NCBI RefSeq assembly: GCF_044324785.1
Contig: NZ_CP172127.1
Source: Escherichia coli
GTDB lineage: Bacteria > Pseudomonadota > Gammaproteobacteria > Enterobacterales > Enterobacteriaceae
Reading direction: 5' to 3' (one strand)
Length of the DNA stretch: 64,000 bases
The position numbers and the translations under genes are program-made. The notes beneath the pieces were generated by a model. That model saw only the letters and a program-made list of their open reading frames with translations. It made no database searches and was not told the DNA's origin. Position 1 is the first letter of the stretch; every line of letters starts with the position of its first letter. Of this stretch, positions 1 through 51,663 are shown piece after piece.

Positions 1-1340
1 TGCCAAAAGCGGCATTTGCGGATATGTGGTTCACCCTGAAAAAAGGGGAGCCCTGGAGTGGCATCGTGAAAAATCGCCGCAAAAATGGCGACCATTATTG
101 GGTGCGGGCCAATGCGGTACCGATGGTGCGCGAGGGAAAAATCAGTGGCTATATGTCGATTCGTACCCGGGCGACGGATGAAGAGATCGCGGCGGTGGAG
201 CCGCTGTACAAAGCGCTAAATGCCGGACGTACCGGTAAGCGTATTCATAAAGGCCTGGTGGTGCGTAAAGGCTGGCTGGGTAAACTGCCTTCATTACCGC
301 TTCGCTGGCGGGCGCGTGGCGTGATGACCCTGATGTTTATCTTGCTGGCGGTCATGCTTTGGTTTGTTGCTGCCCCGGTGGTGACGTATATCCTCTGTGC
401 GTTAGTGGTATTGTTGGCAAGCGCCTGTTTTGAATGGCAGATTGTGCGCCCGATAGAAAATGTCGCCCGTCAGGCACTGAAGGTGGCGACCGGAGAGCGT
501 AATAGTGTTGAGCATCTGAATCGCAGCGATGAGCTGGGGCTGACATTACGCGCGGTAGGGCAGCTTGGCCTGATGTGCCGTTGGCTAATTAACGATGTCT
601 CAAGCCAGGTGTCCAGTGTCAGAAACGGCAGTGAGACGCTGGCGAAAGGCACCGATGAACTGAACGAACATACCCAGCAGACAGTTGATAACGTTCAGCA
701 AACGGTGGCGACCATGAACCAAATGGCGGCGTCGGTGAAACAGAACTCTGCCACGGCGTCGGCTGCCGATAAACTGTCAATCACTGCCAGTAATGCGGCA
801 GTGCAGGGCGGGGAGGCGATGACCACGGTGATCAAGACAATGGACGATATCGCCGACAGTACCCAGCGCATTGGCACCATTACTTCGCTGATTAACGATA
901 TTGCGTTTCAGACCAATATTCTGGCCCTGAATGCGGCGGTGGAAGCGGCGCGTGCCGGCGAACAAGGCAAAGGTTTTGCAGTGGTGGCAGGGGAAGTGCG
1001 TCATTTAGCCAGCCGCAGCGCCAATGCTGCCAACGATATTCGCAAGCTGATTGATGCCAGTGCTGATAAGGTGCAATCCGGTTCGCAGCAGGTACATGCA
1101 GCCGGACGGACGATGGAAGATATTGTGGCACAGGTGAAAAACGTCACCCAATTGATCGCCCAGATTAGCCATTCAACGCTGGAACAGGCCGATGGGCTTT
1201 CCAGCCTGACCCGTGCAGTGGATGAGCTTAACCTCATCACCCAGAAAAATGCCGAGCTGGTGGAAGAGAGTGCGCAGGTGTCGGCGATGGTGAAACACCG
1301 CGCCAGCCGACTGGAAGACGCGGTGACGGTGCTGCATTAA
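1..1340 (+). CDS. aer: Aerotaxis receptor Aer, C-terminal ~445 codons (5' end outside window)
   Basis: Translation from base 3 reads [18 protein letters not shown]... which is internal to Aer; HAMP plus methyl-accepting signalling domain to stop at 1340. The ORF-track start at 24 is only an internal Met. Confidence 0.9.
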
Positions 1341-1368: not shown

Positions 1369-1992
1369 TTAATCCAGTTGCGTAATATCAAAAGCGGCGC
1401 GGTCGATCACCGCAATGATCTTTTTTATTTGTGCATCAGTGATATCGCTCTGGTTGACGCGTAAATCCAGCACCGCTTTAAAATTATCCAGCGCCCGCTT
1501 CATTTGCGGGTTCTGGCGCAGCGCTGCGCCAACGCAACGCGCTTTGATGCGTTCTTCAATCATCTTCACCTGTTCGCGGTTTTCTTCCAGCCACTGCGCG
1601 CCTTGTTCGGTCAACGCAATCTGCTTCTTACCACCTTCCTCTTCGCGGATGGTAATCAGCGACTGCTCCTGGAGAAAATCCAGCGTCGGGTAGATGACGC
1701 CCGGGCTTGGGGTGTAATTCCCCTGGGTCAGATTTTCAATCGCTTTAATCAACTCGTAACCGTGGCTGTCATCGCGCGAGAGAATATCCAGAATCACCAG
1801 ACGCAATTCACCGTGACCAAAGAAACGCTGCCGACGACCGCCGCCGCGACCGTGGCGACCACCGCAGCATTGACCGTGTTCATGCTGGTGACCGTGTCCG
1901 CAGTGCTCGTGTTCTGACTTCTCACCTTTGCAGCAGCCCTCATGGCGTGGCTGGCCTTCATGTTTACAACACCCTTCGTGATGATGGCTCAT
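1369..1992 (-). CDS. yqjI: PadR-family Ni/Fe-responsive repressor YqjI with His/Cys-rich N-terminus
   Basis: 207 aa ORF, ATG at 1992; N-terminus MSHHHEGCCKHEG...HEHCGHGHQHEH followed by PadR-like wHTH; divergent from yqjH. Confidence 0.88.
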   Translation of the reverse strand: MSHHHEGCCKHEGQPRHEGCCKGEKSEHEHCGHGHQHEHGQCCGGRHGRGGGRRQRFFGHGELRLVILDILSRDDSHGYELIKAIENLTQGNYTPSPGVIYPTLDFLQEQSLITIREEEGGKKQIALTEQGAQWLEENREQVKMIEERIKARCVGAALRQNPQMKRALDNFKAVLDLRVNQSDITDAQIKKIIAVIDRAAFDITQLD

Positions 1993-2010
1993 ATCAGCCT
2001 CCTTTTGCTT

Positions 2011-2247
2011 AATTAGATATATCTAATTTATATCTGATATGAGCATTACTGCAAGTACAAAAATGATTTTTAAACGTGAATACACCTCACATCCAGGCCG
2101 GATAATACGTTCATGCCGCATCCGACAGCCTTGCTACGACGCTGAATGTCTTCTCATACTTCAGATATATCAGTTCTACAAATCGCTTGCATTTATCATG
2201 ATTAACAATCATTATCATTTGCGAAATTTATTTAGATATATCTGATT
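2011..2247. promoter_or_regulatory. yqjI-yqjH divergent control region: repeated AGATATATCT palindromes (2011-2028, 2162-2173, 2232-2247) and a Fur-box-like site (2195-2219)
   Basis: Perfect 18-bp palindrome AATTAGATATATCTAATT at 2011-2028; near-copy TTAGATATATCTGATT at 2232-2247; ATCATGATTAACAATCATTATCATT resembles the Fur consensus GATAATGATAATCATTATC. Confidence 0.6.
2093..2126. repeat. REP-like palindromic element
   Basis: caggccggataatacgttcatgccgcatccgac matches the E. coli REP consensus in inverted orientation. Confidence 0.5.
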
Positions 2248-2268
2248 ACTATCACGAAGGCGATAACA

Positions 2269-3033
2269 ATGAATAACTCCCCCCGCTACCCGCAGCGCGT
2301 TCGCAATGATCTGCGCTTCCGTGAACTGACTGTGCTACGCGTTGAGCGTATTAGCGCCGGTTTTCAGCGCATTGTCCTTGGCGGCGAGGCGCTGGACGGT
2401 TTTACATCGCGCGGCTTTGACGATCACAGCAAACTCTTCTTTCCTCAATCTGATGCTCACTTTGTGCCGCCAACGGTAACGGAAGAGGGTATCGTCTGGC
2501 CGGAAGGACCACGCCCACCGTCGCGTGACTATACGCCGCTGTATGACGAACTACGCCATGAACTGGCGATTGATTTCTTTATTCACGAAGGTGGCGTCGC
2601 CAGCAGCTGGGCAATGCAGGCGCAACCGGGCGATAAACTCACGGTGGCAGGTCCGCGAGGTTCGCTGGTGGTGCCAGAGGATTACGCGTATCAGCTGTAT
2701 GTCTGCGATGAATCCGGAATGCCCGCACTGCGCCGCCGCCTGGAAACGTTGAGCAAACTTGCCGTTAAACCGCAAGTTAGCGCGCTGGTTAGCGTGCGGG
2801 ATAACGCCTGCCAGGATTATCTCGCGCACCTTGATGGTTTTAATATCGAATGGCTGGCACATGATGAGCAGGCAGTAGATGCGCGTCTGGCGCAGATGCA
2901 AATCCCTGCCGATGATTACTTCATCTGGATAACCGGCGAAGGCAAAGTCGTTAAGAATTTAAGCCGCCGCTTTGAAGCGGAACAGTATGATCCACAGCGG
3001 GTACGTGCAGCGGCTTACTGGCACGCAAAGTAA
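2269..3033 (+). CDS. yqjH: NADPH-dependent ferric-siderophore reductase (siderophore-interacting protein)
   Basis: 254 aa ORF, ATG at 2269; FAD-binding siderophore-interacting family; Fur box and YqjI-type palindromes upstream. Confidence 0.9.
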   Translation: MNNSPRYPQRVRNDLRFRELTVLRVERISAGFQRIVLGGEALDGFTSRGFDDHSKLFFPQSDAHFVPPTVTEEGIVWPEGPRPPSRDYTPLYDELRHELAIDFFIHEGGVASSWAMQAQPGDKLTVAGPRGSLVVPEDYAYQLYVCDESGMPALRRRLETLSKLAVKPQVSALVSVRDNACQDYLAHLDGFNIEWLAHDEQAVDARLAQMQIPADDYFIWITGEGKVVKNLSRRFEAEQYDPQRVRAAAYWHAK

Positions 3034-3039
3034 CTGATA

Positions 3040-3076
3040 TATAAAAAGAAAAAGGCTGACGATTTCTCGTCAGCCT
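3040..3076 (-). terminator. Hairpin aggctgacgatttctcgtcagcct flanked by A/T tracts; terminator for ileX (minus), probably bidirectional for yqjH
   Basis: Inverted repeat GGCTGACGA/TCGTCAGCC; on the minus strand it is followed by a U-rich run. Confidence 0.55.
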
Positions 3077-3086
3077 TTGCTATATC

Positions 3087-3162
3087 TGGTGGCCCCTGCT
3101 GGACTTGAACCAGCGACCAAGCGATTATGAGTCGCCTGCTCTAACCACTGAGCTAAGGGGCC
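3087..3162 (-). tRNA. ileX: tRNA-Ile2 (anticodon CAU, lysidine-modified), with encoded CCA
   Basis: Reverse complement reads GGCCCCTTAGCTCAGTGGTTAGAGCAGGCGACTCATAATCGCTTGGTCGCTGGTTCAAGTCCAGCAGGGGCCACCA: cloverleaf with CAT anticodon and 3' CCA. Confidence 0.92.
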
Positions 3163-3286
3163 ATGGTAGCGGATTATAAAGTAACTCCGTGTCGCAATCC
3201 AGCCATTACCGCGCGCCTGCTGTTTTTATAAACAATGTATTTTCAATCCGTTATACTTTTCCTGGTGATGTTAGAAAGGAGTAAAT

Positions 3287-3793
3287 ATGGTTGAGGATAT
3301 TTTGGCTCCAGGGTTACGGGTCGTGTTTTGCGGTATCAACCCTGGGCTTTCATCCGCCGGGACTGGTTTTCCCTTTGCTCATCCGGCAAATCGCTTCTGG
3401 AAGGTGATATATCAGGCCGGGTTTACCGACCGTCAGTTGAAGCCGGAAGAGGCGCAGCATCTGCTGGATTATCGTTGTGGCGTCACCAAACTGGTAGACC
3501 GTCCAACGGTGCAAGCCAATGAAGTTTCAAAGCAAGAGCTACACGCAGGCGGGCGTAAGCTGATTGAAAAAATTGAAAATTACCAACCACAAGCGTTGGC
3601 GATTCTGGGCAAACAAGCATATGAACAGGGATTCAGCCAGCGCGGTGCACAGTGGGGGAAACAAACGCTCACCATTGGTTCGACGCAGATTTGGGTGCTG
3701 CCAAATCCCAGCGGTTTAAGTCGCGTTTCACTGGAGAAACTGGTTGAAGCGTATCGCGAGCTGGACCAGGCGCTGGTAGTGCGGGGCCTGTGA
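3287..3793 (+). CDS. mug: G/U mismatch-specific DNA glycosylase
   Basis: 168 aa ORF, ATG at 3287; N-terminal motif VFCGINPG typical of Mug/TDG. Confidence 0.92.
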
Positions 3794-3849
3794 AGTGCAG
3801 TGTAACGAAGTTATGAGCGGGCAAAGTACCGCTCCTTACAGATATGGGC

Positions 3850-4413
3850 TTATTCTTCCGCCAAACGGTCTCTGACTACCATAAGCGCAAATCCCAGCAG
3901 ATTTTTCCCCTTCCAGTGAGATGGCACACCGGCATGAGGATGATCTTTTGCAAGGCCAATCCCCCAGAGTTTATCCACCGGGCTGGCTTCAACCAAAATG
4001 CGGGACTGTGTATTTAGCAAGAATGTTTTCAATGCCGAATGTTGGCTAAATTTGTGATAGTTCCCTTCACAGACCAGCTCAAAGCAACTGGCTTGCCAGC
4101 GTTGTTCATCAAAGTTTGTCACCTGCCTCCCCAGCTTTTTGGCTTCTGCCGGGGTCGCCGCCGCCAGAATTCTGGCAAGCGTTTTACTGTCATTAAACAG
4201 CCGCGCTTTTCCTGCCATCATCCAGTGCTCTGCGGTAGCGTAGGTTATACCACCATAGGTAAAAGGCGAACCCTGCCACCACTGACTAAAGCAAGAGGCG
4301 GTAATTTCGTTATTCGAGGCAGGTTGATGGCCCCAGAACCACAGGTATTTCACTTTTTTCCCGGAATCAAGGGCGGAAAGAAGGGCGGGGAGAGAATAGT
4401 ATCCTTGCTGCAT
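3850..4413 (-). CDS. NADAR-domain (YbiA-like, DUF1768) protein; accessory gene between mug and the rpoD terminator
   Basis: 187 aa ORF with features I recognise as the YbiA/NADAR family (e.g. ...WGIGL...); ATG at 4413 immediately downstream of the rpoD terminator. Confidence 0.7.
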   Translation of the reverse strand: MQQGYYSLPALLSALDSGKKVKYLWFWGHQPASNNEITASCFSQWWQGSPFTYGGITYATAEHWMMAGKARLFNDSKTLARILAAATPAEAKKLGRQVTNFDEQRWQASCFELVCEGNYHKFSQHSALKTFLLNTQSRILVEASPVDKLWGIGLAKDHPHAGVPSHWKGKNLLGFALMVVRDRLAEE

Positions 4414-40323: not shown

Positions 40324-42465
40324 TCAAAATTCCATTTTCACCGTGAATTGCACTGCACGCGGATCGCCAATCTGATTCCCCAGATTATTTGTGGCGATGG
40401 AAGAGGTGTAATACGTTTTATCAAACAGGTTTTTGACGTTTAATTGCAGTGTGACCGGATACTGCAATTTCATTTTGTATGCGGCGAAGGCATCGGCAAC
40501 GAAATAGCCAGGCAGATAATAGTCAGCCCCATTGGTTGCCGAACGACGGCTTACGCCATGTCCACCACCGCCAAACGTCAGTGTGTTATTGCCTGGCATG
40601 TTATGAATGTCATAGGTCAGGAATAGCGAACCGGTATGACGAGGAACATTCGGCAATGGTTTCCCTGCATAATCAGGATCTTCCAGAACCTTAGCATCGG
40701 TATAGCCGTAGCTGGCAATGATATTAATGTTTTCAGTTAATGCTCCCGCAAGGTCGACTTCTACCCCTCTTGAACGAACGCGGCCTGCCGTTTTGGCGAT
40801 GGTTTCATCACCAATACTTTCGGTATACAACACGTTACGTTTATGGATATCAAACAGCGCAATATCTGCGGTTATACCATCGAACAGCTCGAATTTTGCC
40901 CCGACTTCGTAAGCATTAGATGATTCCGGTGGAAGATCTCCGATGTAGCTGGCAATTGACGATTGCGGCATAAATGTTTGCGAATAATTAGCAAATAAGG
41001 ATACCGATGGCGTCAGTTTGTAGACTAACCCCAGTTTGGGCGTCCATTGTTCATCGCGGCTGTCAGTATTGACATTAAAAGGACGGCCTTTACCCGCATA
41101 CTGCGTGTAATACTGATAGCGGATCCCGGCGACGGCAATCCAGTTATCGGTCAGATAGAGCGCGTCCTGTGCATACGCTGAGTAGCTCTCCTGTTTGATC
41201 GTCTGATCACTGTCCGACGCCGAAACCGTTGTGCATTTGCTGGTAATACCATAAACGGGGTTGTAGATATTGAAATCTTTAGCTTTTTTACAGCGAATCA
41301 TATCTGTGCGCAGAAGATCATAATATTCATATGACACCCCACCCAGAATCTCATTATAGAATCCGGCAATATCAACATTCCCTTGCAGATCCGCACGAGT
41401 AGCATGCATACGCTGGGTAGATCCTTGGGTTGCATCAACACGCCGTGTCAGCGTTCCTGTCGTTGCATCATATGCGGTAACACGCGCCTGATTATCGCTG
41501 TATTTATCCTGGCTGTAGCTGTAATCAAAGCGCGCTGTCCACTGGCTATTGAGATGATATTCTGCGTTGAGTTGCGCCAGATCGGACTGACCATCTGTAA
41601 TATTAAACGGTTCGTCAAAACGTATTTTTCGATCAACGTTTACGGGCTGTTTCGTCGTAAGGTCGAAAATCGTTCCACGATCGAACGGAGTTTTATAGTC
41701 CCGATGGGAATAGAGCATGGTTACTGTTGCATTATCACCAAACCAGGTGAGTGACGGGGCAATAAATGTACTGCGCTCTTTACCGAAGTTTCGCCAGTAA
41801 TCTTCATCCTGCACTTCCCCGGTAAGGCGATACGCCAGCTGAGTGCCTTCAATGGGACCTGTGATATCAAGTTGCCCAGTGCCGCCACCAAAACTGGAGG
41901 AGGTGGCTGAAACCGAACCATGGAATGTTTTTTCCGGGCGCTTGGTCACGACGTTAATCAGTCCACCAGGATCGAGAATGCCATACAGCGTGGAGGCCGG
42001 ACCTTTTAGCACTTCCACACGTTCTGTGGCGGCGTTGAAACTGCGAGGAAGTACAGTTCGCAGGCCGTTGGTCATGATGGAGCCATCCCGGTTAGCACCA
42101 AACCCACGACGTACAAAGGCGTCCTGAGTTCCGCCTAATGTATTGGTCTGTACCACGTTACTGACGTTATAAAGCGCTTCATCCAGCGTCGTCGCATTCT
42201 GATTTTCCAGAACCTGATCGCTAACCGTATTGACCACCTGCGGGATATCCAGCATCGGCATATCGGTTAATGTCGCCGTGGAAGTGCTCAGAGGTTGATA
42301 ACCATCGGTCGCCTCAGTTGCGGTATTTGCATCCGCTGTAACAGTGATTGTTTCGCCATCTTTGGTCGTTGCAGTGTCGGTTGCATGAATCATTGGTGCT
42401 GCAAAGAGCAGTGAAAAGAGCGCCCGACCTTTGATTCCTGAGAATGAAGGTGTGAACTTAGCCAT
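40324..42465 (-). CDS. TonB-dependent outer-membrane siderophore receptor
   Basis: 713 aa; signal peptide, plug domain, beta-barrel, C-terminal aromatic residue (...FTVKMEF). Confidence 0.88.
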   Translation of the reverse strand: MAKFTPSFSGIKGRALFSLLFAAPMIHATDTATTKDGETITVTADANTATEATDGYQPLSTSTATLTDMPMLDIPQVVNTVSDQVLENQNATTLDEALYNVSNVVQTNTLGGTQDAFVRRGFGANRDGSIMTNGLRTVLPRSFNAATERVEVLKGPASTLYGILDPGGLINVVTKRPEKTFHGSVSATSSSFGGGTGQLDITGPIEGTQLAYRLTGEVQDEDYWRNFGKERSTFIAPSLTWFGDNATVTMLYSHRDYKTPFDRGTIFDLTTKQPVNVDRKIRFDEPFNITDGQSDLAQLNAEYHLNSQWTARFDYSYSQDKYSDNQARVTAYDATTGTLTRRVDATQGSTQRMHATRADLQGNVDIAGFYNEILGGVSYEYYDLLRTDMIRCKKAKDFNIYNPVYGITSKCTTVSASDSDQTIKQESYSAYAQDALYLTDNWIAVAGIRYQYYTQYAGKGRPFNVNTDSRDEQWTPKLGLVYKLTPSVSLFANYSQTFMPQSSIASYIGDLPPESSNAYEVGAKFELFDGITADIALFDIHKRNVLYTESIGDETIAKTAGRVRSRGVEVDLAGALTENINIIASYGYTDAKVLEDPDYAGKPLPNVPRHTGSLFLTYDIHNMPGNNTLTFGGGGHGVSRRSATNGADYYLPGYFVADAFAAYKMKLQYPVTLQLNVKNLFDKTYYTSSIATNNLGNQIGDPRAVQFTVKMEF

Positions 42466-42563
42466 TTAGTCTGTTATCCCAAAAACTCACGGATTGTCGT
42501 GAGTGAAAATTGTTTCTTGTTGCTCACTAAGCACTATCCGTTTGTTATCTCACCATCGGATAT

Positions 42564-42584
42564 GTAATTGAGAATCATTCAATC
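42564..42584. promoter_or_regulatory. Fur-box-like site in the divergent promoter region between the receptor and the ABC operon
   Basis: gtaattgagaatcattcaatc compared with consensus GATAATGATAATCATTATC; embedded in an AT-rich 370-bp intergenic region. Confidence 0.5.
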
Positions 42585-42838
42585 ATGCGGTGATGTAGTA
42601 GTAAATGAGAAATAACAAAAAATTGCTACATGTGTTTTTATGAGAGGTTAATGCAATTCAATTGATTGTAATTTATTAATATTTAATGGTTTTATTTTTA
42701 TCTTTAAAAATATTTCACCTGTTATTTACCTTGTTTTTGTATGGCTTTTAACTTCTTGACTACTACATTTTGTGGCGTCAAACTCTCAAAGGAGAATGAG
42801 TTTTATTTTTGTTTGTCTTTGATTAAGTTGGCGTACAC

Positions 42839-43648
42839 GTGGCACATAACGCAAAAGGGCAGGGGCTGATCCTCGACAATGTTTCTGCCGGGTATCACAC
42901 GAAAATCATTGTTGATGGTGTTTCTTTCTCCGTTCCCACAGAAAAAATGACCGTTCTGGTTGGGGCAAACGGCTGTGGAAAGTCGACGTTGCTCAGCACC
43001 ATTGCACGTATCTTGCAACCTATGGGCGGCTCGATATTGCTGGATGGTAAAGCGATTCACGAGCAACCAACGAAAGCGTTATCCCGTAGACTTGGGATCT
43101 TGCCGCAGTCGCCATTATTGCCGGAGGGATTAACCGTTTATGAACTGGTGTCGCGTGGGCGTTTTCCCTGGCAGAATTTCATTCGTCAATGGAGCGACGC
43201 CGACGAGCAGGCGGTAGAAGAGGCCCTGAAATTAACCGGTACGCAGGAGTTTGCACATTTACCTGTTGAAAAACTTTCTGGTGGGCAGCGCCAGCGTTGC
43301 TGGATTGCGATGGTGTTGGCGCAAAAGACGCCTTATATCCTGCTGGATGAACCCACAACCTGGCTTGATTTACGTTATCAGGTTGAAATTCTTGAGTTAT
43401 TACATGATTTAACGCGTCATCACGGGCGTACAGTCGTCGTGGTGTTGCATGATCTGAATTTTGCCGTCAATTATGGTGATACGTTGATATTTTTACGCCA
43501 GGGGAAAGTGGTGCGTGTGTTGAATGAGGGGGAACATTGCACGCCTGAGCTGGTAAAAGCTGTCTTTGACGTTGATGTTCACGCATCAATAAATCCTCTG
43601 ACGGGAAAGCCGTTCTTCATGCCGTTTCGTGGTGTAGAAAAAGTATGA
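42839..43648 (+). CDS. ABC transporter ATP-binding protein, FepC/FecE-like
   Basis: 269 aa; Walker A GANGCGKST, signature LSGGQRQR, Walker B ILLDEPT; GTG start at 42839 is the most upstream in-frame start. Confidence 0.88.
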   Translation: MAHNAKGQGLILDNVSAGYHTKIIVDGVSFSVPTEKMTVLVGANGCGKSTLLSTIARILQPMGGSILLDGKAIHEQPTKALSRRLGILPQSPLLPEGLTVYELVSRGRFPWQNFIRQWSDADEQAVEEALKLTGTQEFAHLPVEKLSGGQRQRCWIAMVLAQKTPYILLDEPTTWLDLRYQVEILELLHDLTRHHGRTVVVVLHDLNFAVNYGDTLIFLRQGKVVRVLNEGEHCTPELVKAVFDVDVHASINPLTGKPFFMPFRGVEKV

Positions 43649-44628
43649 TGCGCACAGGGCTGGTTACTGTAATTTTCCTCGCCTTACTGCTGGTGGGATG
43701 CGTGGTATATCCAGGGATTGGTGCCCGATTTATTGCACCACAAACGGTGTTGCAGGCATTTCTTCATTTTGATCCGCAAAACTTCGATCACAACGTAATT
43801 GTAAGACTCCGTTTGCCGCGTTTAGCGGCAGCATTGCTTACCGGTGCTTCTCTTGGAGTTGCTGGTGCTTTGTTGCAGGCTGTCATTCGTAACCCATTGG
43901 GGGAGCCACATATTTTAGGCTTAAATGCCGGAGCCGCTCTTGCTGTCGTTGCTGCCAGTGCGCTTGGGCTGGCCTTTCCGGTTGGACGCCCACTGCTGGC
44001 ATCTACGGGCGGCGCGTTATTGTTCCTGTTGATATTGCTGCTTTCCTCCGCAGGGCGTTCAGGGTTAACGCCAATGAAAGTTACTTTATGCGGCGTGGCG
44101 CTATCGGCGTTCGTGTCCTCAATAACGGCTGCAATCCTGATTCTTGACGAACAAACACTGCTGGCGATGCGGACATGGCTAGCAGGTGATTTAGCGGGGC
44201 AGGATTGGGCGACGCTGGGTACGTCCGCCTGGTTTTCTCTGGGGGGGGTTGTGTTAGCCATTTACCTTGCGCCCTCTCTTAACATGTTGGCACTGGGTGA
44301 TCGCATGGCGCAGGGGCTGGGCGTCTCGGTACTCCGCACGCGAACATTCACTCTGCTTGCGATCGCGTTGCTCTGTGGCGCAGCCGTATCGATTGCTGGC
44401 CCCATTGGTTTTGTCGGTCTGCTAGTACCGCAGATTGTCAGGCGTCTGGTATCTGCGGATCTGCGCGTTCTGCTCCCTCTTTCAGCTTGTGTCGGTGCCT
44501 TACTGCTATTACTGGCAGATATTATTGCCCGGACGCTTTTCACGCCCCATGAGCTGGCGACCGGTGTCATGACGGCGTTAGTTGGTGCGCCCGTTTTTGT
44601 CATTATGGCGACGAGGATGTTCAAATGA
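43645..44628 (+). CDS. ABC transporter permease (FecCD family)
   Basis: 327 aa polytopic membrane protein; start overlaps the upstream stop. Confidence 0.85.
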   Translation: MMRTGLVTVIFLALLLVGCVVYPGIGARFIAPQTVLQAFLHFDPQNFDHNVIVRLRLPRLAAALLTGASLGVAGALLQAVIRNPLGEPHILGLNAGAALAVVAASALGLAFPVGRPLLASTGGALLFLLILLLSSAGRSGLTPMKVTLCGVALSAFVSSITAAILILDEQTLLAMRTWLAGDLAGQDWATLGTSAWFSLGGVVLAIYLAPSLNMLALGDRMAQGLGVSVLRTRTFTLLAIALLCGAAVSIAGPIGFVGLLVPQIVRRLVSADLRVLLPLSACVGALLLLLADIIARTLFTPHELATGVMTALVGAPVFVIMATRMFK

Positions 44629-45674
44629 GTCGGATAATGAACGTCGGGCTACGTCCACTACGTGTTGGTAAGTTTTCGACACTGGTACGCCCTAAAAATC
44701 TGGTGTTGCTTGGTGGGCTGTTTCTGTTTGCGGTTGGAATACTGATATTCGGTCTGATGCATGGTTCTTTTTCTGTCCCGGCATCGGAAGTAGGACGAGC
44801 GTTGTTTGCTCCAGAAAACGTAAGCACAGACGCACGTTATATTGTGCAGGATATTCGCTTGCCGAGAGTCATCATGGCATTGCTATGCGGAGCCATGTTA
44901 GGTATGGCGGGGGCCGCGATGCAATCCATTGCGCGTAACGGCCTTGCCGATCCTGGTTTAATCGGCGTCAAAGAAGGATGTAGCGTGGCGGTGCTGTGGC
45001 TGATTTTCCAGTTTCCAATGCTGGGAATGTTCTGGCGTCCAGTGGCTGGTCTTGCTGGTGGCTTGTTGGTGGCTTTAATCGTGATTTTTTGTGCGCGCGA
45101 TATTTCCCGCCCGCGATTTGTTCTGATTGGTATTGGTGTTTCCTGGTTTTTCGCCGCCGGTATCGGTGTATTTATGACCACTGCAGATGTTCGAGATGTA
45201 CAAACTGCATTGATGTGGTTATCGGGAAGCCTGCATGCAGCTAACTGGATGTTAGTCGGTATTTCAGCCTGTTGGATGTTGCCAGCCGCTCTTTTATTGC
45301 TGTTCACCGCCAGGACGGCGGATATCGCTCTGCTTGGTCATCAGGTGGCAACCGGGTTAGGCGTGAATAGTTCTCGCCTGGCGTTGTTACGTGTCGCCGC
45401 ACCCATAATCCTGACAGCCGTCTGCGTTTCGTGTGTTGGTAACATCGGTTTTGTCGGATTGATAGCACCCCATATATCACGTTTTATTCTACGTGGCGGG
45501 CAGACGACATTACTGCTGGGGAGCGCGGTATCGGGGGCGTTGTTAGTCATCCTGGCGGATAGCATTGGTCGTTTGGCTTTTTTGCCTTTGCAACTGCCTG
45601 CCGGAATCATTATTTCATTGATTGGTGGACCATTCTTTTTGCTACTGCTCTGGCAGCGCAGGAACAGTTTTTAA
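44625..45674 (+). CDS. ABC transporter permease (FecCD family), second subunit
   Basis: 349 aa polytopic membrane protein; start overlaps the upstream stop. Confidence 0.85.
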   Translation: MSRIMNVGLRPLRVGKFSTLVRPKNLVLLGGLFLFAVGILIFGLMHGSFSVPASEVGRALFAPENVSTDARYIVQDIRLPRVIMALLCGAMLGMAGAAMQSIARNGLADPGLIGVKEGCSVAVLWLIFQFPMLGMFWRPVAGLAGGLLVALIVIFCARDISRPRFVLIGIGVSWFFAAGIGVFMTTADVRDVQTALMWLSGSLHAANWMLVGISACWMLPAALLLLFTARTADIALLGHQVATGLGVNSSRLALLRVAAPIILTAVCVSCVGNIGFVGLIAPHISRFILRGGQTTLLLGSAVSGALLVILADSIGRLAFLPLQLPAGIIISLIGGPFFLLLLWQRRNSF

Positions 45675-45684
45675 TGGGAGTTAT

Positions 45685-46632
45685 ATGCGTTTATTTTTTT
45701 CTCTGCTGATACTGTTGTCATTCTTTGCCCGCGCGACAGAACCTGTTCAGGTCTTTACTGATGATTTAGGGCGCAAAGTCACTGTTCCTGCTCATCCAAA
45801 GAGAATTGTCTCTTTACACGATCTTGATATCACTATTCCTCTGATTGAGCTCGGTGTACCTCCTGTCGCCAGCCACGGGCGAACCCGGCCTGACGGTAGC
45901 CATTTCATTCGATCAGGCGCGTTATTGACAGGTGTCGACTTTGATAATTCATCGATCGCTTTTATTGGCACCGCTGATATTGATATTGAAGCGATTGTGG
46001 CGGCAAAGCCTGACCTGATCATCACAGAACCGACCCGTAATACGCCCATTGAACAACTGGAAAAAATTGCGCCCACGGTGAGCATTGATCATCTCAAAGG
46101 CGGCGCGCCAGAAATCTACCGCAAGCTGGCAGAACTTACAGGAACGCAGTCGCAGCTGGCGATACTTGAACGCCGCTATCAGGCACAAATCAATGCGCTG
46201 AAGGCGACGCTGGACAGCCAAAAAATAACGGTATCGGTGATTCAGGCAAATCAGGGAAAAATTAATGTGATGCATAGCTATCATTCGCTGGGGCGGGTAT
46301 TACGCGATGCTGGTTTTCGCTTTCCGCCGCTGATTGAGAGCATTCCTGAAGGTGGGCGAATGGATGTGAGCGCAGAGCGTTTACCTGAACTGGATGCCGA
46401 TTTTGTTTTTGCAACCTGGCGCGGTGACACCGGTGGTAAACCTCAGGATGAGCTGGCAGCAATGGAAAAAGTCATGCCGGGATGGTGTCAGTTTCTGACG
46501 GCCTGTCGTTCCGGGCGCTATGTGCTGATTTCTCGTGAAGAGGCGATTTCTAACTCCTTTGCATCTCTGGGGCTGATGGCTGCGCAGATACAATCACAAA
46601 TTGCGGGACGACCTCTACCGGAGGCTAAATGA
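45685..46632 (+). CDS. Periplasmic substrate-binding protein (siderophore/chelate-binding cluster)
   Basis: 315 aa from ATG 45685 (MRLFFSLLILLSFFARA signal peptide) preceded by aatgggag RBS; track ORF extends upstream. Confidence 0.8.
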   Translation: MRLFFSLLILLSFFARATEPVQVFTDDLGRKVTVPAHPKRIVSLHDLDITIPLIELGVPPVASHGRTRPDGSHFIRSGALLTGVDFDNSSIAFIGTADIDIEAIVAAKPDLIITEPTRNTPIEQLEKIAPTVSIDHLKGGAPEIYRKLAELTGTQSQLAILERRYQAQINALKATLDSQKITVSVIQANQGKINVMHSYHSLGRVLRDAGFRFPPLIESIPEGGRMDVSAERLPELDADFVFATWRGDTGGKPQDELAAMEKVMPGWCQFLTACRSGRYVLISREEAISNSFASLGLMAAQIQSQIAGRPLPEAK

Positions 46633-47516
46633 TCCAGAAAGACAAAACGCGGGTTGATATTTATGGTGAGCGTTTTCGCACTCGCGCGAGTCAGTTAACG
46701 CCTGGGTTAAGAACTGTCGCAAGCTACATTAATGAGCATCGTGAAGTGGTACTCGAGCAAACGGCGATGGAAATTGCGGCCACGTTGAACACTTCCGATG
46801 CCACAGTTATCAGGGCTATACAGGCTCTGGGGTTTGCCGGGCTGCGTGATCTGAAACGCACTCTGGAACAGTGGCTTGGTCCAGCCCTTAGTTCCAGCGA
46901 AAAGATGTCTACGACGGTGAGTAACTTGACGAGCGATGTTAACACCGCAATCGACTTTGTTCTTGAAGGGCATTTGTATACTTGTAATGTCCTGTCAGAG
47001 CCTGAAAACCGCCACGCGCTTGCGCAAGCTGTAGCGTTGTTGGTGCAGGCACGGCAAGTCGCTATTTTTGGCATTGGCGCTTCGGGTATCCTGGCGGACT
47101 ATACCGCACGACTATTCAACCGCATAGGTTTGCCTGCCACGGCACTAAACCGTACGGGTATTGGCCTTGCCGAGCAACTGATCGCGCTTCAACGTGGCGA
47201 TGTTCTGATCATGATGGCGCAAAAATCTGCGCACCGGGAAGGGCTGACAACGCTTCGTGAGGCGAGGCGGCTGGGGATCCCTGTTATTTTGCTGACAAAC
47301 GCGCTGGATTCACGTTTTAGCAAAGACGCCAGTATCGTGATTCATGTTCCGCGCGGGGATGAAAAGGGGAAAACGCCACTACATGGTACGGTATTGTTGT
47401 GCCTGGAAATGATTGTTTGGTCGGTGGCTTCCGCGATGCCGCAGCGTGCGGTTAAAACCATTAAGCGAATTAACGATTTCCATCGGGGTTTGAAAACGGG
47501 AAGAAAGAATGGCTAA
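46629..47516 (+). CDS. RpiR/MurR-family transcriptional regulator (N-terminal HTH, C-terminal SIS domain)
   Basis: 295 aa; SIS-type nucleotide/sugar-phosphate-binding fold recognisable (…VAIFGIGASG…); start overlaps the SBP stop. Confidence 0.8.
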   Translation: MIQKDKTRVDIYGERFRTRASQLTPGLRTVASYINEHREVVLEQTAMEIAATLNTSDATVIRAIQALGFAGLRDLKRTLEQWLGPALSSSEKMSTTVSNLTSDVNTAIDFVLEGHLYTCNVLSEPENRHALAQAVALLVQARQVAIFGIGASGILADYTARLFNRIGLPATALNRTGIGLAEQLIALQRGDVLIMMAQKSAHREGLTTLREARRLGIPVILLTNALDSRFSKDASIVIHVPRGDEKGKTPLHGTVLLCLEMIVWSVASAMPQRAVKTIKRINDFHRGLKTGRKNG

Positions 47517-47905: not shown

Positions 47906-48487
47906 TTAACCAAAAATTTCCACAAGATGCTTGCGATATTCTTCAGTATAGCGGGGAACATCAGGCATTTTTATCACGTCATTAGCGATAAATGTCGGCA
48001 GCGGTTCCATGCCAAGGAATTGGTTTGCTTTATGGAATGGCAGATACACACCGTCAACGCCAACGCCGTGGAAGAACTGATCTTTTTCGGTGAAGGCTTC
48101 CATTGGTGCGTTCCAGGTCAGAGAAAGCATATATTTTTTGCCCTGTACCAGGCCGCCGGAACCGTATTTTTTCGACGGATCTTTGCGGGTACGACCATCG
48201 CTGGCATACAGAGTCCCGTGACCTTCGGTGAATACATCATCAATGTATTTTTTCACTGTCCACGGCGCGCCCATCCACCAGCCTGGCATCTGCCAGATCA
48301 CCACATCAGCCCAGAGAAAGTTTTGTACTTCCGCTTTGACATCGTAGTCGCTGTCGGCGCGAACGATGCGAACATCATGCCCGAGGTCGCGCAGTGTGCC
48401 ATCCGCGACTTCGGTCAGGGTGTTGTTCAGTTGACCATTGGAGTGGGCGAATTTTTTCGCGCCGTTGATAATCAGGATGTTGCTCAT
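47906..48487 (-). CDS. mdaB: NADPH:quinone oxidoreductase MdaB
   Basis: 193 aa MSNILIINGAKKFAHSNGQLNNTLTEVADG... Confidence 0.95.
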   Translation of the reverse strand: MSNILIINGAKKFAHSNGQLNNTLTEVADGTLRDLGHDVRIVRADSDYDVKAEVQNFLWADVVIWQMPGWWMGAPWTVKKYIDDVFTEGHGTLYASDGRTRKDPSKKYGSGGLVQGKKYMLSLTWNAPMEAFTEKDQFFHGVGVDGVYLPFHKANQFLGMEPLPTFIANDVIKMPDVPRYTEEYRKHLVEIFG

Positions 48488-48548
48488 TTTTTAACCTCAA
48501 GGTGAGACGTTTGTCGACTATAGTACGTCACAGAGCGGTACGGTGAAA

Positions 48549-48580
48549 TTAGCAAAATGTGCAAAGTCTTTTGCTAATTT
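48549..48580. promoter_or_regulatory. Perfect 10-bp inverted repeat ATTAGCAAAA-N12-TTTTGCTAAT upstream of mdaB and of the Hcp island
   Basis: attagcaaaatgtgcaaagtcttttgctaat, with an extra direct copy ttagcaaaag immediately 3'. Confidence 0.4.
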
Positions 48581-48736
48581 AGCAAAAGTCTGATCTTGCT
48601 CTGATTCACCGATGCGGGATAAATATTTTCTGAAAATGACAATACTGAAATCAACTTCCTATAAGTTCCCACAGGAGAGATGTATTATGTAAATGATAAA
48701 GTAGTTTTTCGGAAAAAATAATCATGGAGAATATAT

Positions 48737-49216
48737 ATGTCAAATATCATATACTTATCAATTAAAGGAAAAACACAAGGTTTGATCTCTGAGGGCTGTG
48801 GTTCGTATGCATCTATTGGTAATAAATATCAAATAAATCATGTGGATGAAATTTTTGTTTTACAGTTCGACCATTCTTTAAGTCGAGAATATAATGTAGT
48901 GCATCATCCCATAAAATTTTACAAGCCAATAGATAAATCCTCTCCTTTATTAAATGCTGCTCTTTCTGAAAATGAAGAGTTATCAGCTGTATTTAATTTT
49001 TATAGAATTAATTCTGGCGGTTGTATTGAAAGGTTTTACACAATTGAATTGCAAGGGGCATATTTATCGAATATTCTGACTTGTTATCCACACTCAATTA
49101 CACATGCGGGTAATCAACCGGAAGAGGTCATTGTTCTTAATTATAAAAATATAACATGGAAGCACCATATCGCGAGTACGGAATCATATAGCTGTTGGGA
49201 AGAAAGGATTTTTTAA
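48737..49216 (+). CDS. hcp: Hcp-family protein (type VI secretion tube protein), orphan copy
   Basis: 159 aa; conserved Hcp blocks: N-terminal Y-x-I-K-G...QGLI-x-GC, FVLQFDH, HHPIKFYKPIDKSSPLLNAAL, VIVLNYKNITWKH; RBS ggag 7 nt upstream; AT-rich context. Confidence 0.85.
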   Translation: MSNIIYLSIKGKTQGLISEGCGSYASIGNKYQINHVDEIFVLQFDHSLSREYNVVHHPIKFYKPIDKSSPLLNAALSENEELSAVFNFYRINSGGCIERFYTIELQGAYLSNILTCYPHSITHAGNQPEEVIVLNYKNITWKHHIASTESYSCWEERIF

Positions 49217-49218
49217 AT

Positions 49219-49926
49219 ATGAAAAGCGATCTCACTATAAAAAATAGATATTGTACAATTCCACAAACGAAGTTCCGTAAATGGGATGAAATGGACGTTT
49301 TACTCTGGAAGTTAGGAAAAAATGATTCGCGTCGCCGTTCAGGAGTATATTATTTAAATGCTTATAAAGATGCATATGTACAATATAATAGGGACAAAAT
49401 AATTAAACATGCATATGCCGCAGGGATTCGTCCAGAGTTATTGGGCGGCGTGGCCTGGATTGAGTCAGGAGGTATGCCTGAAAATTATAAGTTTCAGATA
49501 TATGAAACAAAAAGAATGATCGGATCGTTAGATATGCCTGAAAATAAAACATCATTTGGCTCAATGGGTATACAAATACGAACCGCAGCGATTACTCTAG
49601 GCCTTGACCCTTCAGAATTAACTACCAGAAATCAGTTAGAGTTAGCGACATGCCTGATGGAAGATGATTTTACCTTTAAAATTGCTGCTACTCATTTAAG
49701 AGATCTTGCCCTTTTTGATTATCCCTCTTCGGCAACACTGTATATGACGAATGAGCAGTATATTATGGCTGGTATTAGATATAATCGTGGTGTTGAACGA
49801 GATTTGGGTTTTTTTATTTATTTAATTAATAATTTGCCTGCGCGTGATACAGATGATTATAAATTCATCTCTTATGGTATGAGGTTGTTAGAGATTAGAG
49901 AACATATCAAAAAATTGATTAATTAG
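49219..49926 (+). CDS. Hypothetical protein with lytic-transglycosylase/lysozyme-like motifs; candidate Hcp-associated effector
   Basis: 235 aa from ATG 49219 (RBS ggaagaaagga); motifs WIESGG, SMGIQI and AGIRYNRG with spacing like the ES / GLMQ / AYNxG motifs of family-1 lytic transglycosylases; start 3 nt after the hcp stop. Confidence 0.6.
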   Translation: MKSDLTIKNRYCTIPQTKFRKWDEMDVLLWKLGKNDSRRRSGVYYLNAYKDAYVQYNRDKIIKHAYAAGIRPELLGGVAWIESGGMPENYKFQIYETKRMIGSLDMPENKTSFGSMGIQIRTAAITLGLDPSELTTRNQLELATCLMEDDFTFKIAATHLRDLALFDYPSSATLYMTNEQYIMAGIRYNRGVERDLGFFIYLINNLPARDTDDYKFISYGMRLLEIREHIKKLIN

Positions 49927-49935
49927 TAATCAGAG

Positions 49936-50265
49936 ATGTTAAAAAAACAACTACTATCAATATTTGAAGCACTATTATACATAATGCTTACTTATTGGTT
50001 AATAGATGCTTTTTTTGCTTTCAATAAGTATGACTGGATGCTTGAGTCGGGAGACAATATTTGCAGTATACCTTCCGTTTCAGGCGAAGATCGTATATTG
50101 CAAGCAATGATTGCAGCATTTTTTCTTCTGACGCCACTTATTATTCTTATCTTAAGAAAACTCTTTATGCGGGAAATGTTCGAGTTTTGGCTATATGTAT
50201 TCACGCTCGTTATTTGTTTGGTTTGTGGTTGGTGGCTTTTTTGGGGACGGTTTATATTTTGCTAA
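49936..50265 (+). CDS. Small 3-TM inner-membrane protein; candidate cognate immunity protein (possibly the YgiZ orthologue)
   Basis: 109 aa with three hydrophobic helices; immediately downstream of the putative effector; AT-rich. Confidence 0.55.
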   Translation: MLKKQLLSIFEALLYIMLTYWLIDAFFAFNKYDWMLESGDNICSIPSVSGEDRILQAMIAAFFLLTPLIILILRKLFMREMFEFWLYVFTLVICLVCGWWLFWGRFIFC

Positions 50266-50269
50266 TAGT

Positions 50270-50306
50270 AAAATCTATGAGAGTCGTTTTAACGGCTCTC
50301 ATAGAC
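50270..50306. terminator. 10-bp-stem hairpin closing the Hcp island, convergent with qseC
   Basis: tctatgagagtcgttttaacggctctcataga. Confidence 0.5.
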
Positions 50307-50313
50307 AGAGAAG

Positions 50314-51663
50314 TTACCAGCTCACCTTCGCCTCAAATCCACCTTGTTCCGCATTCCCAAACTCAACATTCATGCCATGCAATTTGGCGATTCGCTGGAC
50401 AATCGATAGCCCAAGTCCACTGCCGGTAGCGGTTTGTCCGGGTGGGCGATAGAAGCGTTCGCCAATTCTCGCCAGTGCCTCTGGTGTCACACCGGGGCCG
50501 TTATCCCTCACGATGAAATTATCGGCATTCAGCGTGACGTCTACCACGCTGCCCTGTGGACTGTAACGCACGGCGTTATCCAGAAGGTTTCGTACCAACA
50601 AACTTAGCAACAGCGGTTGTCCGGTGCGTTTGATGCCGTGGGCATTGAGTGTCAGTCGCACGTCAATTTTCGCCTGCTGCGCCGTGTGGTAAATATCCAT
50701 CACCGACGATTGCAGGAGATCTTCAAGCGGGATCTCCGCGACGTCCTGAAGGTTATCCAGTGAGTCCAGCCGCGATAGCGTGAGCAGTTGATCAACCAGA
50801 CGAGTAGCACGATCGATTCCGGAATGTAATTGAAGCAGCGCTTTTTTCCGCGCCTGCGGATCATCGTCAGAGAGCTGCGCAACTTCGGTTTGCACTTTCA
50901 GCGCCGTTAACGGGCTACGAAGTTCGTGAGCTGCGTCGGAGGTAAAGCGTCGTTCACGAACCATCATCGCATGTGTGCGGGCGAACAGTTGATTCAACGA
51001 CTCAACCAGTGGACGCACTTCGCTGGGTACGCCCGTCGCGTTTAGTGGTTTTTCCGAGTCAGGGTCACGCATACGTAGTGCCAGCGCCAGTTTGTTCAGC
51101 GGCGTGAGTTCACGACCCAGTAGTACCATCATGATGATTAACATAATCGGCAGTGCGACCAGCCACGGGATCAATTGTCCGGCAACAATCGCCAGCGCCA
51201 TGTCTTCACGGTATTCCCATTCCTGACCAACAACGATGCGATATTTGCCATCAGGTGAGGTCATCCAGACAAAACGCCAGGGATCGTCTTCACCGACCAG
51301 TTGCCCGTCAGCAAAACCTTCCCGCTGATAGCTATAGGGAATATCTTCTCCGTTATCGCCATCGTTAAGGACCATTCTGCCGTCGTGGGTAAAGATGGCA
51401 AAGGTCAGCGCATCGTCATCAACATGACCGTGTTTTAATTTATTTGGCGTCTGTGCCATGCGATCCGCCGCGTTGATTTCGTTGAGATCGAGCGTACTTA
51501 ACCGTTTGGCAAACAGCATCAGTTGGGTGTCGAACAACTCATCGACGTTATCCGTTGTTTGTTTCCAGGCGACAAAGCTGGAAAGCAGCCAGGTCACTGA
51601 GGCCAGAATTAAAAAGATTAGCGTCAGCCTGACTCGCAGACTAAGACGTTGGGTAAATTTCAT
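50314..51663 (-). CDS. qseC: Quorum-sensing/adrenergic sensor histidine kinase QseC
   Basis: 449 aa; two TM segments, HisKA and HATPase_c domains. Confidence 0.95.

Follow-up and report, generated by a model that had tools for sequence, protein, structure and literature searches.

ygiZ of Escherichia coli as a likely immunity gene for an Hcp-linked toxin of lysozyme-like fold, retained as an orphan in K-12-type strains

We analysed a 64,000-nucleotide stretch of Escherichia coli DNA (contig NZ_CP172127.1, hereafter the window) with a focus on ygiZ, a gene of unknown function in K-12, and on the two genes that precede it here. In the window, ygiN and mdaB (47906-48487), both on the minus strand, are followed by hcp, an open reading frame of 235 codons and ygiZ, all on the plus strand, and then by qseC (50314-51663) and qseB, which again lie on the minus strand. 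MG1655 has the order ygiN, mdaB, ygiZ, qseC, qseB with the same relative strands, and its ygiZ encodes 110 amino acids. The original prediction for this DNA had described a K-12 layout in which a ygiZ of about 110 codons lies between qseC and mdaB, and that description is correct, orientation included. It had also placed a 109-residue membrane protein behind an hcp-effector pair; the pair and the 109-codon frame are present exactly as described, and both hydropathy and structural modelling give the latter three helices. The features on which the analysis rests are as follows.

48669..49957, no strand: segment of 1,289 bp missing from K-12-type (orphan) genomes, from blastn against MG1655 and strain E1
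48737..49216, plus strand: orphan hcp (tssD), 159 amino acids, TIGR03344, predicted carrier or chaperone of the downstream toxin
49219..49926, plus strand: predicted cargo effector of a type VI secretion system (T6SS), 235 amino acids, lysozyme-like or lytic-transglycosylase-like fold, putative catalytic Glu82 in AWIESGG
49936..50265, plus strand: ygiZ (DUF2645), predicted cognate immunity protein, ATG start, 109 amino acids, stop included in the end coordinate

The window YgiZ is 91% identical in amino acid sequence to that of K-12, and since the flanking genes and the strand are also the same, the two genes are orthologous, as had been supposed. A match to the Pfam family DUF2645 (PF10840; E = 1e-10, residues 13-109 against positions 5-98 of the 98 in the model), the RefSeq name 'ygiZ: DUF2645 family protein' in matching genomes such as TUM1886 (99.9% identical to the window across the mdaB-qseC interval), and a ratio of non-synonymous to synonymous substitution rates (dN/dS) of 0.17-0.42 in all pairwise comparisons together indicate that ygiZ is a real gene and not a chance open reading frame. 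In place of the 1,289-bp segment, orphan genomes have approximately 160-200 bp of other AT-rich DNA (160 unrelated bases in K-12). The right breakpoint falls 22 nucleotides inside ygiZ and is common to both E. coli orphan types examined, MG1655 and E1, so that the first eight residues differ, being MLKQKIKT in the orphans and MLKKQLLS in the window. The upstream sequence of Escherichia whittamii is of the K-12 type and 87% identical to it as far as the 5' end of ygiZ.

The hcp product matches TIGR03344 at E = 4.5e-59, with a score of 199 bits against a cut-off of 58.9. An identification of this gene with the published Hcp2B of avian pathogenic E. coli or Hcp-ET of Shiga toxin-producing E. coli (STEC) was rejected, as those belong to other loci and go with other toxins. 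Only 2 nucleotides separate hcp from the toxin gene, and 9 lie between the toxin stop and ygiZ. At the end of the toxin open reading frame (49924-49929) a TAG is followed at once by TAA, and RefSeq homologues, including that of TUM1886, are one codon longer (236 amino acids); the window allele appears to have a stop one codon early at the extreme C-terminus, which is probably without consequence.

The 235-residue protein has no signal peptide, lipobox or hydrophobic segment and matches no NCBIfam or Pfam model, and searches of the PDB by single sequence and by profile gave nothing useful. What proved informative was comparison of the predicted fold and a profile search of representative proteins. 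The predicted fold is lysozyme-like and all-helical, and Foldseek placed MltE, Slt, MltC and Tse3 at the top ranks, with weak E-values. Glu82 is at the C-terminal end of a predicted helix (residues 72-83); this residue, Gln119 (in GSVAMQ) and Tyr188-Asn189-x-Gly191 are invariant in 25 close relatives, and across 75 diverse relatives Glu82 remains invariant while the other positions are at least 90% conserved. By eye, and from motif rather than residue-level superposition, these positions correspond to the ES, GLMQ and AYNxG motifs of family-1 lytic transglycosylases, which would make Glu82 the equivalent of the Slt/Mlt catalytic glutamate. The profile search, over 1.84 billion representative proteins, found the toxin domain in 375 clusters, and in longer family members it is C-terminal, behind an Rhs core or a PAAR domain. 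A Pfam scan of the 75 relatives returned eCIS_core (12), OmpA (5) and PAAR (3), and also PG_binding_1, RHS and SLT. The combination of fold, conserved residues and fusions is the signature of a polymorphic toxin domain and suggests that it is aimed at peptidoglycan; an enzyme that would act in the periplasm, yet has no export signal and is encoded behind hcp, fits a T6SS cargo effector. Its sequence does not discriminate between a lytic transglycosylase and a hydrolytic muramidase. A pore-forming toxin was rejected on the grounds that the protein has no hydrophobic segment.

The pairing of this toxin domain with a following DUF2645-type protein recurs in at least nine distinct genomic contexts, which include plasmids and one PAAR-toxin fusion. 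As in the window, the trio of Citrobacter werkmanii and of two Pseudocitrobacter genomes is flanked by mdaB and qseC. In Pectobacterium an hcp-toxin-DUF2645 trio is located between pagP and the gene for an EamA transporter, in Serratia fonticola on a 75-kb plasmid, in Chania beside transposase genes, and in Rahnella on a 553-kb plasmid, where the toxin is just 40% identical; it is also found in Serratia sp. H1w and P. zantedeschiae. The flanks in Pectobacterium, the S. fonticola plasmid, Chania, Serratia sp. H1w and the Rahnella plasmid are unrelated to mdaB and qseC. On a plasmid of Serratia sp. JSRIV002 (1534-3555), a 151-residue protein with an apparent signal peptide takes the place of hcp ahead of the toxin (43% identical) and DUF2645, and an hcp gene lies convergently downstream. 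On the contig with the PAAR-toxin fusion, a DUF2645 gene of 100 codons begins at the toxin stop, and two more distant toxins (distant toxins are 37-43% identical overall) are followed by proteins of 109 and 98 residues with three transmembrane helices (TM1-TM3) and the same design. Spacing between toxin and DUF2645 genes in other genera is a gap or overlap of 0-4 nucleotides, the genes being adjacent or overlapping by 4 nucleotides in Pectobacterium, Serratia and Chania. Cross-genus identity is 36-64% for the immunity candidate, 56-74% for the toxin and 56-77% for Hcp (the last including the cassette-heading proteins of Citrobacter, Pseudocitrobacter, Pectobacterium, Serratia and Chania); of the three, the immunity candidate has diverged fastest, which is the usual pattern for immunity proteins. 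Scanning genomes with peptide patterns of DUF2645 gave 7 loci, which are a sample and not a census. In Serratia oryzae J11-6 (locus positions 3285-4321) a DUF2645 gene is present without hcp or toxin, so orphans exist beyond Escherichia. Directly upstream of it, overlapping frames of 108 and 92 codons resemble a toxin-antitoxin pair in size and arrangement.

The original prediction had raised the possibility that ygiZ is an orphan immunity gene in strains that lack the hcp-effector pair, and a survey of 5,426 complete E. coli genomes shows that such strains abound. At least 80% of the mdaB-qseC interval of the window is covered in 1,261 genomes. The same number, approximately 23%, have hcp and toxin and would be armed and immune; in 1,260 of the 1,261 the 3' half of the toxin gene is contiguous with ygiZ. 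These carriers, about a quarter of E. coli, include ST131 and strain 83972. ygiZ itself is found in 4,597 genomes (nearly full-length in 4,580), and in approximately 3,336 (about 61%), among them K-12, BL21, DH5alpha and many STEC, it stands alone. Individually, MG1655, BL21, strain E1 and E. whittamii each have ygiZ and lack hcp and the toxin gene. Neither toxin nor ygiZ is present in 829 genomes (about 15%), for example strain 536, in which mdaB and qseC are 109 bp apart. No intact toxin gene without ygiZ occurs among the complete genomes. The exception to intact pairing is NIPH17_0020 (NZ_AP024560.1; locus positions 3483-4203), where one deletion removes the C-terminus of the toxin together with the N-terminus of YgiZ, and RefSeq marks both genes as partial pseudogenes. 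This is as expected if immunity is lost only along with the toxin, although it is a single case.

Two further observations on ygiZ sequences arose from database records. The only E. coli match labelled as a plasmid, NZ_MG591698.1 (strain PN43, 'plasmid unnamed', 353,691 bp), has parE, ygiN, mdaB, the trio, qseBC and ygiW arranged as on the chromosome; in all likelihood a piece of chromosome was deposited, and the match is no evidence of mobility. Altered ygiZ alleles comprise one with a frameshifted loop, a 79-residue partial form that is common in Shigella flexneri (192 members), and forms of approximately 160-164 residues in Shigella dysenteriae and others; the orphan may be decaying in some lineages, or the genes may have been called differently.

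Kyte-Doolittle windows above 1.6 form three blocks in the window YgiZ. An AlphaFold2 model (19 homologues; predicted local distance difference test score, pLDDT, 85) has long helices at residues 2-27, 50-77 and 81-107, the first two joined by a loop of approximately 22 residues and the last two by a 3-residue turn. The N-terminus carries a charge of +2, the loop (30-54) of -3 and the turn (74-81) of +2, a pattern which by the positive-inside rule predicts a cytoplasmic N-terminus and a periplasmic first loop and C-terminus. The predicted topology is as follows.

N-terminus: cytoplasmic
Residues ~8-29: TM1
Residues 30-54: acidic periplasmic loop, with motif KYDWMLExGDxxCS, including Cys43
Residues ~55-73: TM2
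Between TM2 and TM3: basic cytoplasmic turn
Residues ~82-104: TM3
Residue 109: C-terminal Cys, periplasmic

It can be seen that the C-terminal Cys and loop 30-54 are periplasmic in this topology, and the fold of the toxin implies a target in the same compartment, both placements being predictions. The protein ends in RFIFC, five residues past TM3. Across genera, conservation in the immunity candidates is highest in the loop motif (N-K-Y-D-W-M-x-E-x-G-D-x-x-C-S), at a Pro of TM2 and at a Cys that is the C-terminal residue or its neighbour, and the sole homologue that lacks the loop Cys at the position of Cys43 also lacks the terminal one. As both Cys residues are predicted to be periplasmic, a disulfide that staples the loop to the C-terminus is plausible in this model. 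Relative to the window, the loop has one change in K-12 (D40G) and none in strain E1. A Foldseek search of the PDB with the YgiZ model returned nothing below E = 4.9.

From adjacency, the recurrent pairing of toxin and DUF2645, the lack of any intact toxin gene without ygiZ and the survey, it is likely that a T6SS toxin which is borne by Hcp and cleaves peptidoglycan has YgiZ as its cognate immunity protein, and that the K-12-type ygiZ is an orphan immunity gene; the sequence analysis supports what had been proposed for this locus. We envisage that hcp, the 235-codon gene and ygiZ would form a three-gene T6SS cargo cassette. The 235-residue protein would cleave the glycan strands of peptidoglycan through a lytic-transglycosylase or muramidase-like fold with Glu82 as the catalytic acid and, having no signal peptide, would travel in or by the Hcp of its own cassette, and a T6SS with its genes at another place in the genome would fire it into the periplasm of adjacent cells. 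YgiZ, anchored in the inner membrane by its three helices, would display the acidic loop of about 25 residues, probably tied by a disulfide to the C-terminal Cys, and this loop would bind and block the incoming toxin. The trio would have resided between mdaB and qseC for a long time; the lineage that gave rise to K-12, BL21 and most E. coli would have lost hcp and toxin by deletion and kept ygiZ as an orphan with its own promoter, which would protect cells that have no T6SS from toxin-armed relatives.

Several points weigh against this interpretation. The characterised immunity proteins to T6SS glycoside-hydrolase effectors, such as Tsi3 and Tgi2, are soluble or lipoproteins and periplasmic, and polytopic membrane immunity proteins are commoner for pore-forming toxins. 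A loop of approximately 25 residues is a small surface with which to block a 27-kDa enzyme. The window toxin does not match Pfam SLT (PF01464) even at E <= 10, and only one of the 75 relatives reaches that family at E <= 0.001 and four at E <= 0.1; the pLDDT of the toxin model is moderate (72.7), with residues 1-31 and 102-114 below 50. A distant, Rhs-fused relative of the toxin is followed by a large unrelated protein and not by DUF2645, so that the pairing is shown for the enterobacterial subfamily only. No T6SS core genes are found in the 64-kb window. As to the size of the loop, proteinaceous lysozyme inhibitors use small protruding loops, and by analogy a YgiZ loop that plugs the active-site cleft would fit.

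An alternative that keeps YgiZ as an immunity protein is that the toxin has a target other than mature peptidoglycan and is active on the outer surface of the inner membrane, with lipid II or growing glycan chains as examples of its substrate. An integral membrane protein as antidote would then make sense; we regard this reading as unlikely. Less probable still is that YgiZ assists the toxin, as a holin-like protein or a loading or export factor. The arrangement does recall a phage lysis cassette, in which a lysozyme-fold gene accompanies one for a protein of about 100 residues with three transmembrane helices (as in class I holins), and the toxin and ygiZ genes are tightly coupled. However, hcp stands first in the cassette, or else the toxin is fused to PAAR, no phage genes adjoin, and YgiZ, in stopping so soon after TM3, lacks the charged cytoplasmic tail that is typical of holins. 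A helper would moreover have no reason to persist in the many E. coli that keep ygiZ under purifying selection without the toxin, and the only genome to have lost ygiZ function lost the toxin in the same deletion.

Published work on ygiZ bears on a further alternative, namely that it is an ordinary envelope-stress gene of the Rcs regulon and that the mdaB-qseC interval is merely an insertion hot spot for hcp and toxin. K-12 ygiZ is among ten additional loci activated by the BglJ-RcsB heteromer, which is known to lift repression by H-NS at leuO and bgl, and the site at ygiZ to which the heteromer binds was verified by mutagenesis (PMC3950696); orphan ygiZ thus has a promoter of its own, tied to an envelope regulator. 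Overexpression of ygiZ improves the tolerance of BL21 to the terpene sabinene, in a 2020 study that described it only as an uncharacterised inner-membrane protein (PMC7181518), and its deletion raises transformation efficiency, according to work cited in PMC12844161. These phenotypes concern the envelope generally and do not point to a T6SS, which again counts against an immunity function, and most E. coli have ygiZ without the toxin. A full-text literature search, with subscription journals outside its coverage, returned 23 papers in which ygiZ is named and none naming DUF2645, and in none of them was either connected with the T6SS. Nevertheless, DUF2645 follows the toxin in Pectobacterium, Serratia, Chania, Rahnella and the PAAR-fusion contig, none of which has flanks related to mdaB and qseC. 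The GC content of ygiZ is low like that of hcp (32%) and the toxin gene, the three lying at 32-35% against 50-53% in the flanking genes, which marks them as parts of the same foreign segment, and the 829 E. coli without ygiZ show that it is not a core gene. We therefore consider it highly improbable that ygiZ is simply an envelope-stress gene.

As the trio is found at this site in Citrobacter and Pseudocitrobacter too, deletion appears to have produced the K-12-type loci and left ygiZ as an orphan, and the simplest reading of the sequences is an old acquisition between mdaB and qseC, followed in Escherichia by deletion of hcp and toxin that left the orphan and, separately, by loss of all three genes. 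Synonymous divergence (dS) of the trio is saturated (0.85-4.0) and only roughly comparable with that of flanking genes; it fits old residence without proving it. dN/dS is 0.17-0.21 between K-12 and trio-linked ygiZ alleles and 0.40 between K-12 and E. whittamii, both orphans, with 10-25 substitutions per pair, and on these small counts the orphan gene appears to be kept under purifying selection. When the upstream DNA specific to orphans was compared with the 3' end of the toxin gene, tblastn gave noise-level, partly collinear matches, and local alignment against shuffled sequences gave 1 of 500 for E1, 32 of 500 for E. whittamii and 73 of 500 for K-12. That this DNA is a decayed toxin 3' end is suggestive for E1 and E. 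whittamii, not significant for K-12, and unproven.

Among known systems, Tse3/Tsi3 (Tge1/Tgi1) of Pseudomonas aeruginosa and Tge2/Tgi2 of P. protegens are T6SS peptidoglycan glycoside-hydrolase effectors with their immunity proteins. No sequence similarity to these systems was detectable, and the toxin described here is a small, Hcp-linked cargo; in contrast to the soluble or lipoprotein Tsi3 and Tgi2, YgiZ is a 109-residue inner-membrane protein with three predicted transmembrane helices and no structural relative in the PDB. From the family-1 lytic transglycosylases (Slt70, MltE/EmtA, MltC) the toxin differs in having no SLT match, signal peptide or lipobox, and its gene, unlike that of a housekeeping enzyme, belongs to a toxin/immunity cassette. 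The DUF3289 (colicin-M-like) systems also join a periplasm-acting T6SS effector to a very small, membrane-embedded putative immunity protein (PMC11148199, PMC12135965). For these, DUF943 and, in Aeromonas jandaei, an open reading frame of 95 codons with three transmembrane helices have been proposed (PMC11148199, PMC12135965), and the latter provides a precedent for membrane mini-immunity to periplasmic T6SS toxins (PMC12135965). Both the toxin fold and the immunity family differ from those here, and no relationship in sequence was seen, Pfam giving only DUF2645 for YgiZ.

The retention of an immunity homologue without its effector resembles, in concept, the orphan immunity arrays of Vibrio cholerae and the acquired interbacterial defence genes of Bacteroidales (PMC6730261). 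Orphan ygiZ occurs in strains wholly without a T6SS, such as K-12 and BL21, since K-12 and B strains lack this system (PMC6730261). Unlike orphan arrays and mobile islands, ygiZ is a single gene at a fixed chromosomal site with its own regulated promoter (PMC3950696). The orphan is also the majority state among the complete genomes, and as it is common to E. whittamii that state is old. What is new here is the effector-immunity family and the orphan gene, the concepts themselves being established; what is unusual is a membrane-embedded mini-immunity protein and an orphan that is the majority state of its species. A broader suggestion, which we regard as a real possibility but would hesitate to call probable, is that DUF2645/YgiZ represents a new class of T6SS immunity protein, in which a very small polytopic protein of the inner membrane uses a short, disulfide-stapled loop against a periplasmic toxin of lytic-transglycosylase-like fold, and that most E. 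coli, K-12 and BL21 among them although they have no T6SS, have long kept it as an envelope-stress-inducible shield that works alone against relatives carrying the toxin.

A K-12 gene of unknown function is in this way given a specific and cheaply testable hypothesis, orphan immunity against a defined toxin. If it is true, the locus would define a new effector-immunity family whose toxin domain has no Pfam model despite its 375 representative clusters and is also used by Rhs, PAAR and extracellular contractile injection (eCIS) systems. The standard laboratory 'prey' strains K-12 and BL21 would not be naive to every E. coli T6SS toxin. The armed, shielded and naked states would constitute a natural three-state polymorphism for studying the upkeep of weapons and defences in one species, and YgiZ itself would be structurally unusual, as a mini-inhibitor, embedded in the membrane, of a cell-wall glycosidase.

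The remaining features concern the borders of the interval and its surroundings. One lies between the convergent ygiZ and qseC stops:

50275..50304, no strand: hairpin with a 13-bp stem, RNA fold -24.8 kcal/mol

The z-score of this hairpin is -5.0, and none of 200 shuffles folds equally well; by sequence it is probably a transcription terminator shared by ygiZ and qseC. A consensus terminator scan missed it because the plus strand has no T-run there. A scan of 48400-50400 found fewer promoter-like sites than in shuffled sequence, and no terminator, and is uninformative on an internal ygiZ promoter.

On the mdaB side, a perfect 10-bp inverted repeat with a 1-nucleotide centre, CTTTTGCTAA-T-TTAGCAAAAG, occupies 48568-48588, with a third copy of the arm, TTAGCAAAA, at 48549-48557. 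These repeats (48549-48588) belong to the part of the intergenic region nearest mdaB, which is retained in all three states of the locus; in strain 536 they lie a few bases from the qseC stop. They could be an operator for mdaB or a terminator. Farther upstream, a block at 40324-47516 between parE and ygiN is absent from K-12, MG1655 having parE directly followed by ygiN. It encodes a TonB-dependent siderophore receptor, an ABC ATPase, two FecCD permeases, a substrate-binding protein and a MurR/RpiR regulator, and at least its ygiN-proximal genes are present in strains 536 and 83972; it is a second presence/absence polymorphism, adjoining that of ygiZ. At the start of the window (1-1170), the annotation of the near-identical TUM1886 would put the first bases within the end of a prophage (terminase small subunit), beside a tRNA-Ile gene at approximately 1093-1168.

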